Of a stretch of 64,000 nucleotides of DNA, positions 13,863-60,143 are shown one piece after another. A program made the position numbers and the translations under genes. The notes under the pieces are model-generated. The model was not told where the DNA came from, searched no databases, and saw only the letters and a program-made list of their open reading frames with translations. Position 1 is the stretch's first letter, and every line of letters starts with the position of its first letter. This DNA is from Escherichia coli (GTDB taxonomy: Bacteria; Pseudomonadota; Gammaproteobacteria; Enterobacterales; Enterobacteriaceae), in the NCBI RefSeq assembly GCF_013122565.1, contig NZ_CP053258.1. One strand, written 5' to 3'.

Positions 13863-14459
13863 TCAGGACGCAAGTCCCAGTGCGCGTTTGACAGGCCCAA
13901 AGCTGCGACGATGATGTTCAGTCGCGCCATATTCAGCCAGTTTTTCCAGATGAAAAGCGGTTGGATACCCTTTGTGTTGGGCAAAACCATATTGCGGGAA
14001 AACAATATCCAGCGCCGCCATTTCGGCGTCACGCGTCACTTTCGCCAGGATAGAAGCGGCACTGATTTCCGGTACGCGGCTATCGCCTTTCACCACAGCC
14101 ATCGCAGGCATCGGTAATTTCGGGCAGCGGTTACCATCAATCAACACATATTCCGGCGCAATATGCAGCCCAGCGACGGCACGCTGCATCGCCAGCATGG
14201 TCGCATGTAAAATATTCAGTTCGTCGATTTCGTGAGGTTCCGCGCGGCCCAGACTCCAGCTCAACGCTTTCTCTTTGATCTCTTCACAGAGCGCCAGACG
14301 GCGTTTTTCGCTCAGCTTTTTGGAATCATTCAGCCCGGCAATCGGGCGCGCCGGGTCGAGGATCACCGCAGCGGTGACGACCGCGCCAACTAACGGCCCG
14401 CGTCCGACTTCATCCACACCCGCAACCAGGTGCGTGTGCGGATAAACAAATTCGATCAT
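13863..14459 (-). CDS. rnhB: Ribonuclease HII
   Basis: 198 aa [28 protein letters not shown]; 4-nt overlap with lpxB stop. Confidence 0.9.
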
Positions 14460-15604
14460 TGTGCTAACTCCAGAACGGCTTGTGCCGCCTGCTCATCGGC
14501 ATTGCAGCGGATCTGCTGATGCAGTTCACGGAAGGTATCGTGCATCGCGTGGCTGGTTTTCCCGTTCGCCAACAGCGGTAACAGCGCCGCAGCCAGTTTT
14601 TGCGGCTCACACTCTTCCTGCAATAATTCTTTGACTAACTCTCTGCCCGCCAGCAGGTTTGGCAGCGAGACATAATCAGTTTTCACCAGTCGCTTCGCCA
14701 GCCAGAAGGTGAAAGGCTTCATGCGATATCCCACCACCATCGGGCATTTCGCCAGCATACATTCCAGTGCTGCCGTACCCGACGCCAGTAGCGCCGCATC
14801 GCTGGCGACCATCGCCTCACGGCCCATCCCATCCAGCAAATGAACCGACAGGTCTGGCGCAACTTCAGCTTTGATGCGTTCAAACTGCTCGCGGCGTTTG
14901 GCATTCACCAGCGGCACCACGATTTCGAGATCCGGATATGTCTGGCGCAAAAGCTGGGCCGTTTTCAGGAAATCGGCACTAAGCATTTCGACTTCTGCAC
15001 CACGGCTGCCCGGCAACAATGCCAGGCAGTGGGCATCGTGAGGGATCCCCAGCACATCACGGGCGGCATTTTTATCTGGATCTAATGGCATGGCATCAGC
15101 CATGGTATGACCGATAAAGCGGCACGGTACGTTATATTTGTCATAAAACGCTTTTTCGAAAGGCAGAAATGCGAGCACCAGGTCGGTGGCTCTGCCTATT
15201 TTGAAAACACGTTTCTGTCGCCACGCCCAGACTGACGGACTGACGTAATGAATGGTTTTGATACCCTGCTTTTTGAGGTTACCTTCAAGAGTAATATTGA
15301 AGTCAGGCGCATCAATGCCGACAAAAACATCTGGCTTCAGTTCGCCAAAACGCTTTGTCAGATCGGCACGAATATGCAATAAGCGACGCAGACGACCGAG
15401 CACTTCAACAATGCCCATCACTGCCAGTTCTTCCATTTCGTACCAGGCTTCGCAGCCTTCAGCCTGCATTCGTGGCCCGGCAACACCAACAAAGCGGGCG
15501 TTGGGCACACGTTCTTTCAGAGCGCGGATTAAACCGGCCCCCAGGATATCGCCGGAGGTTTCTCCGGCGACCAGGGCAATCGTTAATGGACGCTGTTCAG
15601 TCAT
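14456..15604 (-). CDS. lpxB: Lipid-A-disaccharide synthase
   Basis: 382-aa ORF in the lpxD-fabZ-lpxA-lpxB cluster. Confidence 0.9.
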
Positions 15605-16392
15605 TAACGAATCAGACCGCGCGTTGAGCGTGCAAAGAAATCGGTAAAGGCTTTCACTTCCGGATATGTTTCCGCCAGTTCAGCAATTTCCGGTTTCACT
15701 TCATCGAGCGTTTTACCGCTACGATAAATCAGCTTATACGCATTGCGGATAGCGGTAATCGCCTCACGGCTGAATCCGCGGCGCTTCAGCCCTTCGATAT
15801 TGACACCGAACGGCGTTGCGTGGTTACCCTGCGCAATGACATAAGGAGGGACGTCCTGCGCCACACCGGAGCAGCCGCCAACCATCACATGCGCACCAAT
15901 GATGCAGAACTGATGGACTGCGGTCATGCCGCCGATGATCGCGAAGTCGTCAACCGATACGTGACCCGCCAGCGTTGCGTTGTTGGCGAGAATACAGCGG
16001 TTACCTACCGTACAATCGTGCGCAATGTGCGCGTTGATCATCAGTAAGTTGTCGCTGCCCACCTTCGTCAATCCACCGCCCTGGACTGTGCCACGATGAA
16101 TGGTGACGCTTTCGCGAATGCGGTTACGATCGCCGATTTCCACGCGGGTCGGTTCGCCAGCATATTTCAGATCCTGGTTAACTTCGCCGATGGAGGCGAA
16201 CTGATAAATCTCATTATCGCGGCCAATTTTAGTATGACCATTCACGACAACGTGAGATTTCAGTACGGTACCCTCACCAATTTCGACATGGGGTCCAACG
16301 ATACAAAAAGGACCAATGTGAGCGTTCGCGCCAATCGACGCGCCCTCTTCCACAATGGCGGTTGGATGCACAAAGGCGGATTTATCAATCAC
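15604..16392 (-). CDS. lpxA: UDP-N-acetylglucosamine O-acyltransferase
   Basis: 262 aa, left-handed beta-helix hexapeptide repeats; 1-nt overlap with lpxB. Confidence 0.9.
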
Positions 16393-16395
16393 GTA

Positions 16396-16851
16396 TCAGG
16401 CCTCCCGGCTACGAGCACACATCATCGTTGCTTCGCAAACTACTTTACCGTCGACCAGAGCAACCCCTTTAAAACGGGTCAGGCCGCGGCGCGTTTTTTC
16501 GAAAGTGACTTCCATGATCATTTGATCGCCAGGCACGACCGGGCGCTTGAAGCGCGCTTCGTCAATACCAGCGAAATAGTACAGCTCACCCGGTTCCAGT
16601 TTTCCTACGCTTTTAAACGCCAGAATACCTGTTGCCTGTGCCATTGCTTCCAGAATCAGCACACCCGGGAAAATCGGTTTTCCAGGGAAATGGCCCTGAA
16701 AGAATGGCTCATTGACAGAGACATTTTTTACTGCGCGCAGAAAACGACCTTCTTCAAAATCCAGCACGCGATCCACCAGTAAGAACGGGAAACGGTGCGG
16801 CAGAAGTTCTAAAATCTCTTCAATCTGCAGAGTATGAGTGTTAGTAGTCAA
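16396..16851 (-). CDS. fabZ: 3-hydroxyacyl-ACP dehydratase FabZ
   Basis: 151 aa from in-frame TTG giving (M)[28 protein letters not shown]; track ORF is over-extended 5'. Confidence 0.85.
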
Positions 16852-16955
16852 GATACTCTTCCTGTCAAAATATAAGAAACGACAATAATAACACGGCCTG
16901 CCGCAATCGTAAGAATGAGACAGGCCGTAAAGTTTGGCGAACAAAAGATGGAACG

Positions 16956-17981
16956 TTAGTCTTGTTGATTAACCTTGCGCTCAAGCGATTTCAGACGCTT
17001 GCTCATGTCATCAATGTTCATCACCAGTGCAGCGGTTTTGCGCCAGACTTTGTTGGGTTGCAGCGGAATGCCTGAGGAATAGACGCCTGGTTCAGTGATG
17101 GGACGCATCACCATACCCATGCCCGTAACCGTCACTTTGTCGCATATTTCCATATGCCCGTTGATTACGCTGGCTCCGCCGATCATGCAGTAACGACCAA
17201 TTTTCAGGCTGCCCGCCATAATGACGCCACCGGCAACCGCCGTATTGTCGCCAATCACGACGTTATGTGCAATCTGGCACTGGTTATCAATGATCACGCC
17301 ATTGCCAATAACAGTGTCATCCAGCGCGCCGCGATCGATGGTAGTGCAGGCACCGATCTCCACGCGATCGCCAATAATTACGCGACCAATCTGTGGGATC
17401 TTCACCCAGTTACCACGATCGTTGGCATAACCAAAGCCGTCTGCGCCTACCACTGTTCCGGACTGGATCAGGCAATTCTGACCGATCTGGATCTCATGGT
17501 AAATGGTTACGTTCGCCCAAAGACGCGAACCTGCACCGATTTTGCTGTTTTTACCTACGAAGCAACCGGCACCGATAATCACGTTATCGCCCAGTTCAAC
17601 GCCGGACTCAATCACCGCGTTAGCGCCAATCGATACGTTGTTACCCAGCTTCGCCGTCGCGTCGATCACTGCACTGGGTGCAATGTTCTGCGCGGGCTGC
17701 GGCGTGGTATCTAAAATTTGCGCCATGCGCGCGTAAGTCAGGTAGGGATTCTTCACTACCAGCGCGGCACTTTTCGCGAAAGGAAGATCGTCCTGGGTCA
17801 TGACAACCGCGGACGCCTGGCACAAGCCTAAATGCTCACGGTATTTTGGGTTAACCATGAACGTAATGTGACCTGTTTGTGCAGATTGCATGGACGCAAC
17901 GCCGGTGATGACGATATCGCCATCACCGTGTAGTTCTGCATCCAACTGCTGCGCTAAATCAGCCAGTCGAATTGAAGGCAT
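16956..17981 (-). CDS. lpxD: UDP-3-O-(3-hydroxymyristoyl)glucosamine N-acyltransferase
   Basis: 341 aa [21 protein letters not shown], hexapeptide repeats. Confidence 0.9.
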
Positions 17982-17984
17982 TAC

Positions 17985-18470
17985 TTATTTAACCTGTTTC
18001 AGTACGTCGGCAGTGATGTCTTTTACATCGCTGCTGTTGTAAGCAACGGCGTTTGCATCAACAACCAGATCGATATCCTGGCTGTTGGCAACGGATTTCA
18101 CAGCAGTCTGGATACGAGTAACCAGTTTACCGCGTTCTTCGTTGGAACGACGTGCGCGATCCTGCTCAAAAGCCTGCGCTTTCTGAGCAAAAGTCTGGCG
18201 CTGAGCCATCACGTCTTTTTCCAGCTTAGTGCGATCGCTGCCCGCTTTCATGGACTGCAGCTTTTTCATTTTAGCCTGCAGATCGGTTTCCATACGCTGC
18301 AGTTCGCTGGCACGGCCTTTGAACTCATTTTCCAGCGTGTTAGAAACACCGGTTTTCTGCGCTACCTGCTGGAACAGGCTGCCCATGTTGACGATTGCAA
18401 TTTTGTCAGCCGCCTGAGCAGAAGTTGCCAGTGCTAAACCGAGACCTGCCGCTAATAACCACTTTTTCAC
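17985..18470 (-). CDS. skp: Periplasmic chaperone Skp (OmpH)
   Basis: 161 aa [35 protein letters not shown]. Confidence 0.9.
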
Positions 18471-18591
18471 AATAAACTCCTTACCATCCCATTTGCACCG
18501 GAGGGTGCAGTTCTTTGCGTGGCCCGGCGATCTTATATTGATCGCCTAAAGTCATCGCTACACTACCACTACATTCCTTTGTGGAGAACAC

Positions 18592-21042
<2,451 letters not shown>

Positions 21043-22417: not shown

Positions 22418-23275
22418 TTAAAGCGTCCTGAATACCAGTAACAACAAGCAAGCAAAGACCGGTACCGCAGCCGTCAGGCTATCAATACGATCTAAAATAC
22501 CACCGTGTCCTGGAATTAGATGACCGCTGTCCTTAATTCCTGCTTCACGCTTAAACATACTCTCGGTCAGATCGCCGAGCACTGAGGCTAACGCTGCGAC
22601 AATAGAGCAAATGAGTAAGGTGACGGGAGCGACGTCGAGATTCGCCCACATGCCATAGCCCCATGAGATTACCGCTGCGGTCGCGAGTCCACCGATAAAG
22701 CCTTGCCAGGTTTTACCCGGAGAAACCTTCGGTGCCAGTTTATGTTTACCAAACAATTTGCCAAACATATATGCGCCAGAGTCAGCGCCCCATACCAGGA
22801 TCATGACATAGAGCAGCCATATTGCGCCACTGTAATGATTCTCGTCGTAGTGCCAGGCCCGTAACGCCAGCATGCCCCAGAAGAAGGGAACAATGGTTAG
22901 CACGCCAAAAATAATGCGCAATGTTTTAGAGTTACGCCAGATTGCTGCGGAACCTGGGTAAAACAGCACCAGCAATAGCGCGACAATCCACCAACCCAGC
23001 GAAGCCCAAAGTGAGATTTCGACCAGCGGTTGATGAATATTTCGGTGATATTCCGGCAACAGAAAAAGCATCAGCGCCAACAATAACCCGCACAGCACCG
23101 CCAGCCATACTCGCTGCGAGCGAGTGGTAAAACCGCTAAGCTGTCCCCATTCCCACGCTGCCAGCATGCAGACCACCAGCGTTACAATGGCGAACCCCAC
23201 CGGCGGCAACAGAAACAACGCCGCGATGACGACGGGTATTAACACAAAAGCAGATATCAGGCGATACTTCAGCAA
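22418..23275 (-). CDS. cdsA: CDP-diglyceride synthetase
   Basis: 285-aa polytopic membrane [26 protein letters not shown]. Confidence 0.9.
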
Positions 23276-58745: not shown

Positions 58746-60143
58746 ATTTTTACCCGAGTCGCTAATTTTTGCCGCAAGGTGCTAAGCCGCGAGGAAAGCG
58801 AGGCTGAACAGGCAGTCGCCCGTCCACAGGTGACGGTGATCCCGCGTGAGCAGCATGCTATTTCCCGCAAAGATATCAGTGAAAATGCCCTGAAGGTAAT
58901 GTACAGGCTCAATAAAGCGGGATACGAAGCCTGGCTGGTTGGCGGCGGCGTGCGCGACCTGTTACTTGGCAAAAAGCCGAAAGATTTTGACGTAACCACT
59001 AACGCCACGCCTGAGCAGGTGCGCAAACTGTTCCGTAACTGCCGCCTGGTGGGTCGCCGTTTCCGTCTGGCTCATGTGATGTTTGGCCCGGAGATTATCG
59101 AAGTTGCGACCTTTCGTGGACACCACGAAGGTAACGTCAGCGACCGCACGACCTCCCAACGTGGGCAAAACGGCATGTTGCTGCGCGATAACATCTTCGG
59201 CTCCATCGAAGAAGACGCCCAGCGCCGCGATTTCACTATCAACAGCCTGTATTACAGCGTAGCGGATTTTACCGTCCGTGATTACGTTGGCGGCATGAAG
59301 GATCTGAAGGACGGCGTTATCCGTCTGATTGGTAACCCGGAAACGCGCTACCGTGAAGATCCGGTACGTATGCTGCGCGCAGTACGTTTTGCCGCCAAAT
59401 TGGGTATGCGCATCAGCCCGGAAACCGCAGAACCGATCCCTCGCCTCGCTACCCTGCTGAACGATATCCCACCGGCACGCCTGTTTGAAGAATCGCTTAA
59501 ACTGCTACAAGCGGGCTACGGTTACGAAACCTATAAGCTGCTGTGTGAATATCATCTGTTCCAGCCGCTGTTCCCGACCATTACCCGCTACTTCACGGAA
59601 AATGGCGACAGCCCGATGGAGCGGATCATTGAACAGGTGCTGAAGAATACCGATACGCGTATCCATAACGATATGCGCGTGAACCCGGCGTTCCTGTTTG
59701 CCGCCATGTTCTGGTACCCACTGCTGGAGACGGCACAGAAGATCGCCCAGGAAAGCGGCCTGACCTATCACGACGCTTTCGCGCTGGCGATGAACGACGT
59801 GCTGGACGAGGCCTGCCGTTCACTGGCAATCCCGAAACGTCTGACGACGTTAACCCGCGATATCTGGCAGTTGCAGTTGCGTATGTCCCGACGTCAGGGT
59901 AAACGCGCATGGAAACTGCTGGAGCATCCTAAGTTCCGTGCGGCTTATGACCTGTTGGCCTTGCGAGCTGAAGTTGAACGTAACGCTGAATTGCAGCGTC
60001 TGGTGAAATGGTGGGGTGAGTTCCAGGTTTCCGCGCCACCAGACCAAAAAGGGATGCTCAACGAGCTGGATGAAGAGCCGTCACCGCGTCGCCGTACTCG
60101 TCGTCCACGCAAACGCGCACCGCGTCGTGAGGGTACCGCATGA
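58746..60143 (+). CDS. pcnB: Poly(A) polymerase I
   Basis: 465 aa if initiated at in-frame ATT ([22 protein letters not shown]...); first in-frame ATG is ~50 codons further in. Confidence 0.85.

Follow-up and report, generated by a model that had tools for sequence, protein, structure and literature searches.

A probable leaky terminator hairpin with a tail that doubles as an extended -10 promoter upstream of the TTG-initiated fabZ gene of Escherichia coli

Introduction

The closest described system to the locus studied here is fabZ (b0180) of E. coli K-12, which lies in the bamA-skp-lpxD-fabZ-lpxA-lpxB-rnhB-dnaE cluster and is annotated with a TTG start. Our locus is identical to it in sequence, coordinates and gene order, and no difference was found. 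The junction between lpxD and fabZ also belongs to familiar classes of element, namely leaky intra-operon terminators and internal promoters. According to reviews, FabZ and the enzymes of lipid A synthesis compete for one acyl-ACP precursor, so that the balance of their expression bears both on the integrity of the envelope and on resistance to LpxC inhibitors.

Two features of the junction are already known: the TTG start, from standard annotation, and the transcript boundaries, from public datasets. Genome-wide tables list the junction under no label other than 'orphan 3' end' or 'novel TTS', and it carries no annotation in RefSeq. We found no description of the junction, as a hairpin combined with a promoter, in the searchable literature. 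Here, we tie the published ends and starts to a conserved hairpin fused to a putative extended -10 promoter and follow this arrangement across Enterobacterales.

We analyzed a 64,000-nt stretch of E. coli DNA (the window), for which an original prediction had proposed that fabZ starts at a TTG within a tightly packed cluster and that the lpxD-fabZ spacer could hold an internal promoter. Coordinates, the start codon, conservation and RNA structure were determined in the present analysis, and RNA 3' ends, transcription starts, read-through fractions and RpoE binding were taken from published genome-wide data. Taken together, they make it highly probable that translation of fabZ begins with the TTG at 16851 and that the spacer contains a leaky terminator hairpin whose tail doubles as the extended -10 promoter of fabZ.

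Results

Organization of the cluster

The features of the cluster and of the lpxD-fabZ junction are collected in Table 1. The spacer length of 104 nt given in the original prediction is exact by sequence, and the RefSeq annotation of the identical sequence (strain C41(DE3)) leaves the same gap. The spacing claimed for the other junctions also agrees with the sequence, with a 3-nt gap between fabZ and lpxA, a 1-nt overlap of lpxA and lpxB at 15604, and a 4-nt overlap of lpxB and rnhB at 14456-14459. The gap between skp and lpxD is likewise 3 nt.

Table 1. Coordinates of genes, sequence elements and published transcript boundaries in the window.
Feature	Position	Strand	Remarks
bamA	21024-18592	minus	
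skp	18470-17985	minus	GTG start
lpxD	17981-16956	minus	ORF and RefSeq annotation
lpxD-fabZ intergenic spacer	16955-16852	minus	104 nt
Upstream in-frame TTG	16944-16942	minus	Would give 182 aa; sole upstream in-frame start before next stop
Sigma-E-type promoter (tentative)	16935-16910	minus	AAACTT 16935-16930, 15-nt spacer, TCTTA 16914-16910
Conserved RNA hairpin	16928-16893	minus	ACGGCCUGUC...GGCAGGCCGU; invariant 7-bp outer stem and covarying inner stem
Putative extended -10 element	16893-16885	minus	TGTTATTAT (TGn + TATTAT); overlaps U-rich tail of hairpin
Published RNA 3' ends	16890-16888	minus	K-12 202062-202064; 3-5 nt past hairpin
Main fabZ transcription start	16880-16878	minus	K-12 202072-202074; 5' UTR 27-29 nt
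Ribosome-binding block	16866-16853	minus	GACAGGAAGAGTAT; invariant or nearly invariant columns in 71-sequence alignment
fabZ (3-hydroxyacyl-ACP dehydratase)	16851-16396	minus	TTG start; 151 aa plus stop
fabZ TTG initiation codon	16851-16849	minus	fabZ stop codon 16398-16396
lpxA	16392-15604	minus	GTG start at 16392
lpxB	15604-14456	minus	ATG start overlaps lpxA stop
rnhB	14459-13863	minus	
dnaE	13826-10344	minus	

The region is nearly uniform within the species: 401 nt around the fabZ start are present at ≥99% identity in 5423 of 5426 complete E. coli genomes. Three genomes gave no match to the region, and 3 of the 5423 matches fell in plasmid-labelled records; both groups are probably assembly or labelling oddities.

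Among the 56 annotated genes that match the window, 47 start with ATG, six with GTG, two with TTG (fabZ and cdsA, the latter at 23275 on the minus strand) and one with ATT (pcnB, at 58746 on the plus strand). Non-ATG starts, which account for nine of the 56, are unusually frequent in the envelope and lipid genes here (GTG in skp and lpxA, TTG in fabZ). Elsewhere in the window, Rfam matches above gathering score were obtained for t44 RNA (83.5 bits; 28841-28927, minus), upstream of rpsB, and for the HtrA 5' UTR thermometer (77 bits; 37084-37129, minus), upstream of degP. The latter adjoins the known sigma-E promoter motif of degP, AACTT-N16-TCTGA, at 37135-37160.

The fabZ start codon and its conservation

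The original prediction held that the TTG at 16851 is the start of fabZ and gives the canonical 151-aa protein, and several lines of evidence bear this out. RefSeq places the start at the same codon, and the 151-aa product is 100% identical to residues 4-154 of chain A of PDB entry 6N3P (E. coli FabZ). The product also scores above the cut-offs of both FabZ equivalog profiles of NCBIfam (NF000582, 208.6 bits against a cut-off of 113; TIGR01750, 200.6 bits against 155), which match within residues 8-146. The extent of these profiles and the conservation of the TTG (see below) point to the same start. As had also been claimed, no ATG occurs in frame near the N-terminus; the first in-frame start downstream of the TTG in E. 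coli is a GTG at codon 26. A Shine-Dalgarno-like sequence, AGGAAGAG, occupies 16863-16856 and ends 4 nt ahead of the TTG. Thus fabZ combines a TTG at the conserved N-terminus, a Shine-Dalgarno-like sequence at working distance and the lack of a competing start, the sequence features expected of a gene that initiates at UUG, and these support the TTG at 16851 as the real start. The FabZ protein is said to have been characterised in the original fabZ paper by Mohan et al. in 1994.

To follow the junction beyond E. coli, we assembled the 80 closest loci, one genome per species, and added E. coli C41 for a total of 81. The 81 loci belong to Enterobacteriaceae, Erwiniaceae and Yersiniaceae. A separate protein search listed matches of ≥77% identity, and the range covered is Enterobacterales. 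The TTG is kept in all 81 loci (the 80 closest among those listed, and C41), where it is preceded by the nearly invariant GACAGGAAGAGTAT. At the four-fold degenerate sites of fabZ, a median of 46% differ from E. coli (range 14-64%) and 4 of 80 are invariant, indicating that conservation of the TTG does not stem from low divergence. Among deeper branches, Pectobacterium, Leminorella and the reduced endosymbionts Blochmannia and Baumannia retain TTG, and it is also found in Yersinia enterocolitica.

We considered in-frame alternatives on both sides of the TTG. A mechanical listing of open reading frames reaches the upstream TTG at 16944, and gene callers often give a longer FabZ (157-208 aa) in other species, but initiation there or at a downstream in-frame codon is extremely unlikely. 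The upstream TTG is confined to the window, C41 and E. albertii, and 56 of the 81 loci contain no in-frame ATG, GTG or TTG at all between the nearest upstream stop and the conserved TTG. It also sits 5' of the main fabZ transcription start, translation from it would have to cross the hairpin described below, and the 31-aa extension that it would add matches no FabZ profile, the equivalog profiles starting at residue 8-9. We therefore reject a start at 16944. On the other side, the next downstream in-frame start in the 81 loci lies at codon 14 or beyond, mostly at codon 24 or 29, and its use would remove a conserved N-terminal segment of the protein.

In Y. enterocolitica, the annotated FabZ has 196 aa and begins at an ATG inside the hairpin loop (positions 701-835 of that locus), with the conserved TTG 45 codons downstream; this annotation translates through both the hairpin and the Shine-Dalgarno block. 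Over-extension of this kind, with the TTG missed, seems to underlie many FabZ entries in databases that are 157-208 aa long, and overlooking the TTG start thus yields over-long FabZ annotations in other species.

The three Morganellaceae loci (Photorhabdus, Xenorhabdus and Arsenophonus) have a different start. Here, the fabZ start is an ATG located one codon past the position of the TTG; in Photorhabdus and Xenorhabdus, that position is occupied by TAG. The hairpin is kept in this family, and the block upstream of the start is kept in Photorhabdus and Xenorhabdus. The lpxA gene of Morganellaceae has ATG in place of GTG, so that both non-ATG starts of the cluster have changed in one family. Because Morganellaceae use an ATG one codon downstream, the TTG is not indispensable.

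Its persistence elsewhere suggests that the TTG may be kept to tune the level of FabZ. It is possible, if somewhat unlikely in our judgement, that the codon has no such role and is a historical state that is tolerated, persisting only because the ribosome-binding site around it already provides a suitable output. The shift to ATG in Morganellaceae, with TAG at the TTG position of two genera, the upstream block and the operon layout preserved and the lpxA start changed likewise, is what one would expect of a codon without a tuning role. Against it, a single T-to-A change would turn the TTG into ATG, yet this change occurs in none of the 86 loci outside Morganellaceae, including those of Blochmannia and Baumannia.

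A conserved hairpin in the lpxD-fabZ spacer

The original prediction rightly foresaw an internal promoter in the spacer but overlooked a conserved hairpin at which some upstream transcripts end. All 81 loci have a spacer, which ranges from 99 to 278 nt in length. Its 5' part is free to vary, while the last ~75 nt contain a hairpin with the outer stem CGGCCUG...C(A/G)GGCCG followed by GUGUUAUUAUUG. The distance from the hairpin to the start codon is 39-41 nt in most close loci and 38-52 nt overall. The E. coli hairpin has a minimum free energy of -23 kcal/mol, with a z-score of -5.7 relative to shuffled sequences.

The two parts of the stem are conserved in different ways. The 7-bp outer stem is invariant in 84 aligned sequences, save for one position that alternates between U-A and U-G, and the GUGUU that follows it does not differ between families; the inner stem, by contrast, covaries. 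The inner stem differs in sequence, and even in register, between genera; nevertheless, when each sequence was folded separately it proved self-complementary in 63 of 63 distinct variants (mean z-score -2.75 relative to a shuffled inner segment). When 89 sequences were searched with a covariance model derived from 22, all but those of Blochmannia and Baumannia (87 in total) had a single sense-strand copy, located at this position. In the resulting alignment 88.6% of cells are paired, compared with ≤45% in slid controls, and 7 of the 15 hairpin pairs show compensatory double changes, with a covariation score reached by 0 of 500 shuffles; these values come from an alignment guided by the model and hence biased towards the structure, and the independent per-sequence folding agrees with them. 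A plain MAFFT/RNAalifold alignment recovered only the invariant outer stem and missed the covariation of the inner stem because the latter shifts register.

RNAalifold also predicted a mini-hairpin between the Shine-Dalgarno sequence and the start codon. Its five weak pairs are essentially invariant, with one G-U/G-C change, so that the alignment is neutral and speaks neither for nor against this structure.

A search of Rfam over 16000-19000 with E-values up to 10 gave no credible match for the spacer hairpin, and RefSeq annotates no feature under it. We also considered membership in a REP-type repeat family and rejected it, as the hairpin occurs once in the window (0.01 copies expected by chance) and once per E. 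coli genome.

The invariance of the outer stem exceeds what a terminator stem needs. This raises the question of whether a protein or small RNA reads the stem to modulate read-through or the expression of fabZ, which would link the output of LpxD and FabZ. Such a factor-binding element would account for an outer stem (CGGCCUG paired with C(A/G)GGCCG) and a GUGUU that are fixed across families although neutral sites are near saturation, a degree of constraint that a plain terminator would not require. We nonetheless consider it quite improbable: there is no known candidate factor, the hairpin belongs to no Rfam family and is not described in the literature corpus searched, and the combined, overlapping constraints of stem, promoter and U-tract may suffice to hold the sequence fixed.

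Published RNA 3' ends place a leaky transcript end at the hairpin

Published K-12 coordinates were converted to the window by the relation window = 218952 - K12, which put five published 3'-end contexts in register. Term-seq detected 3' ends at 202063 and 202064, classed as 'orphan' (Adams et al. 2021, PMC7815308). They fall between GGCCGUGUUA and the next U, 4-5 nt past the stem. SMRT-Cappable-seq, which reads whole primary transcripts, found molecules from the skp promoter that run from 200398 to 202062 and cover skp and lpxD, and their end was labelled a 'novel TTS' (Yan et al. 2018, PMC6131387). These skp-promoter transcripts ending at 202062 indicate that the hairpin marks a real but leaky transcript end. 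In M9 medium, 172 reads start at skp; 13 of them stop at the site, 90 continue through it and another 8 stop within 50 bp (PMC6131387), which corresponds to termination of ~12% (13 of the 111 reads reaching the site). The row for rich medium (202 reads; 24, 3, 147) gives ~14% if its last two columns are swapped relative to M9, as neighbouring rows suggest.

The hairpin is followed by the U-rich tail UGUUAUUAUU, an interrupted tract with 7 U in 10 positions, and a consensus scan reports a terminator-like site at 16905-16892. A stable GC-rich hairpin and a U-rich tract, with in vivo 3' ends a few nucleotides beyond, are the hallmarks of an intrinsic terminator, and we infer that intrinsic termination is the probable source of these ends. 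The same ends could in principle be left by 3'-to-5' exonucleases that digest skp-lpxD RNA, after cleavage or Rho-dependent termination, as far as a protective stem, in which case the hairpin would be an element of RNA stability or processing. Consistent with trimming are the imperfect U tract, the small share of transcripts that end at the hairpin, and the fact that Term-seq alone cannot separate termination from trimming. However, two independent methods put the ends 3-5 nt past the stem, the hairpin with its U-rich tail occurs in the sense orientation only, and the hairpin is conserved together with the tail. On balance, trimming seems an improbable origin of the ends, and termination at a leaky intrinsic terminator the likely one.

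The terminator tail overlaps a putative extended -10 promoter

The internal promoter anticipated for the spacer agrees with published mapping by both Cappable-seq and SMRT-Cappable-seq, which place a strong start site 27-29 nt 5' of the TTG. In Cappable-seq, the start at 202074 has a score of 56.7, second in the cluster after that of skp at 200399 (80.8) (Ettwiller et al. 2016, PMC4782308). In SMRT-Cappable-seq, 306 reads from M9 and 472 from rich medium begin at 202072, and the transcripts cover fabZ-lpxA (Yan et al. 2018, PMC6131387). These counts exceed those from the skp start. The 27-29 nt leader includes the Shine-Dalgarno block.

The original prediction went too far in allowing room for a promoter in the spacer alone, as weaker start sites map inside the skp, lpxD, fabZ and lpxA reading frames, at 200691 (score 39.7), 201790, 202518 and 203230, respectively (Ettwiller et al. 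2016, PMC4782308).

Promoter prediction within 16852-16955 had been proposed as a check on the spacer. A two-hexamer sigma-70 scan returned a match on the antisense strand only, with none on the gene strand, and site counts were at the level of shuffled sequence. An extended -10 element can, however, be read directly from the sequence: in TGTTATTAT, a TGn is followed by TATTAT, which matches TATAAT at five of six positions, A2 and T6 among them. Transcription was mapped as starting 5-7 nt beyond it, within the 5-9 nt expected for an extended -10 element (TGn plus hexamer). The two-hexamer scan is blind to this promoter because there is no -35 element here. We favour a sigma-70 promoter of this type as the probable origin of the fabZ message. 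As TGTTATTAT overlaps the U-rich tail of the hairpin, one set of bases would serve both as terminator tail and as promoter -10 element. Genomic SELEX has shown that RpoD holoenzyme binds the spacer, and its authors proposed other hexamers.

A tail of the TGTTATTAT type is found in most Enterobacteriaceae loci, and is replaced by TATTGA or TGTTGA in Erwiniaceae and Yersiniaceae. Since the element degrades in these two families, the promoter reading fails to account for conservation of the tail outside Enterobacteriaceae.

A tentative sigma-E-type promoter

Genomic SELEX also reported a strong peak of RpoE holoenzyme in the lpxD/fabZ spacer, with an intensity of 30.9. A weak Cappable-seq start at 202048 (window 16904, within the hairpin; score 2.5) (PMC4782308) sits 6 nt downstream of AAACTT-N15-TCTTA. 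Motifs of this type occur at chance level in the window (7 matches, 6.6 expected) in a search that recovered the known degP promoter as a positive control, and we reject the motif as stand-alone evidence on account of this chance frequency. The motif is conserved neither in Erwiniaceae nor beyond part of Enterobacteriaceae. The assignment of AAACTT-N15-TCTTA as a sigma-E promoter is accordingly tentative. Compared with promoters of the sigma-E regulon, such as that of degP at 37135-37160, it resembles GGAACTT-N16-TCnnA, lies in a spacer bound by RpoE holoenzyme in vitro and has a weak start 6 nt downstream, but its spacer is one base short and the motif is at chance frequency.

Downstream junctions

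The close packing seen downstream of fabZ is widely shared: the fabZ-lpxA gap is 3 nt in 83 of 87 loci, lpxA starts with GTG in 84 of 87, and the lpxA/lpxB junction most often reads TAATG. Gaps of 3 nt and overlaps of 1 and 4 nt are the geometry of translationally coupled pairs, and judged from this geometry only it is plausible that the tight junctions couple translation.

A second RNA 3' end is found 61 nt into lpxB, just past the hairpin CGCCGGAGAAACCUCCGGCG (window 15543-15575, minus strand). It was detected by Term-seq at 203409 (PMC7815308) and by SMRT-Cappable-seq at 203408 (PMC6131387). Of 306 transcripts from the fabZ promoter in M9, 55 end at this site and 165 pass it (PMC6131387). 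That 55 of 306 end inside lpxB means that part of the fabZ-lpxA message never spans lpxB, despite the 1-nt overlap of lpxA and lpxB.

Discussion

Our results suggest the following model for the lpxD-fabZ junction. The stable hairpin and the U-rich UGUUAUUAUU would act as a leaky terminator that stops a minority of the transcripts from the skp promoter and so produces a skp-lpxD unit. In the DNA, the tail would serve as the extended -10 element TGTTATTAT, with transcription restarting 5-7 nt downstream, and this promoter would provide most of the fabZ-lpxA message, carrying a leader of 27-29 nt. On this message, AGGAAGAG, ending 4 nt upstream, would position the ribosome so that the TTG at 16851 is read as fMet to give the 151-aa dehydratase. 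A weak sigma-E-type promoter may also fire within the hairpin. If this model is correct, the cluster is not one uniform operon, since a leaky terminator fused to a promoter separates skp-lpxD from fabZ-lpxA.

A more far-reaching possibility is that the hairpin is a recognised regulatory RNA, in which a bound protein or small RNA sets how much upstream transcription reaches fabZ and which, together with the weak TTG, makes up a control point for the ratio of FabZ to LpxD and LpxA. We regard this as a long shot; were it true, the hairpin and the TTG would govern the balance between phospholipid and lipopolysaccharide synthesis. For the terminator-promoter model that we prefer, the practical value is modest and current understanding is left unchanged.

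Set against the systems it most resembles, the junction falls into known classes. It shares with leaky intra-operon intrinsic terminators a GC-rich stem-loop, a U-rich tail, 3' ends 3-5 nt after the stem and partial read-through, but it differs in its interrupted tail, its low efficiency and an outer stem that does not vary between families. In contrast to leaky intra-operon attenuators, it has no leader peptide, riboswitch or known factor attached to it. Its likeness to extended -10 (TGn) sigma-70 promoters lies in the match of TGTTATTAT to TGnTATAAT and in starts 5-7 nt downstream; a -35 element is usually absent in this class, and none is recognisable here. What sets the fabZ promoter apart from that class is that its element would double as the tail of a terminator and is not conserved in Erwiniaceae and Yersiniaceae.
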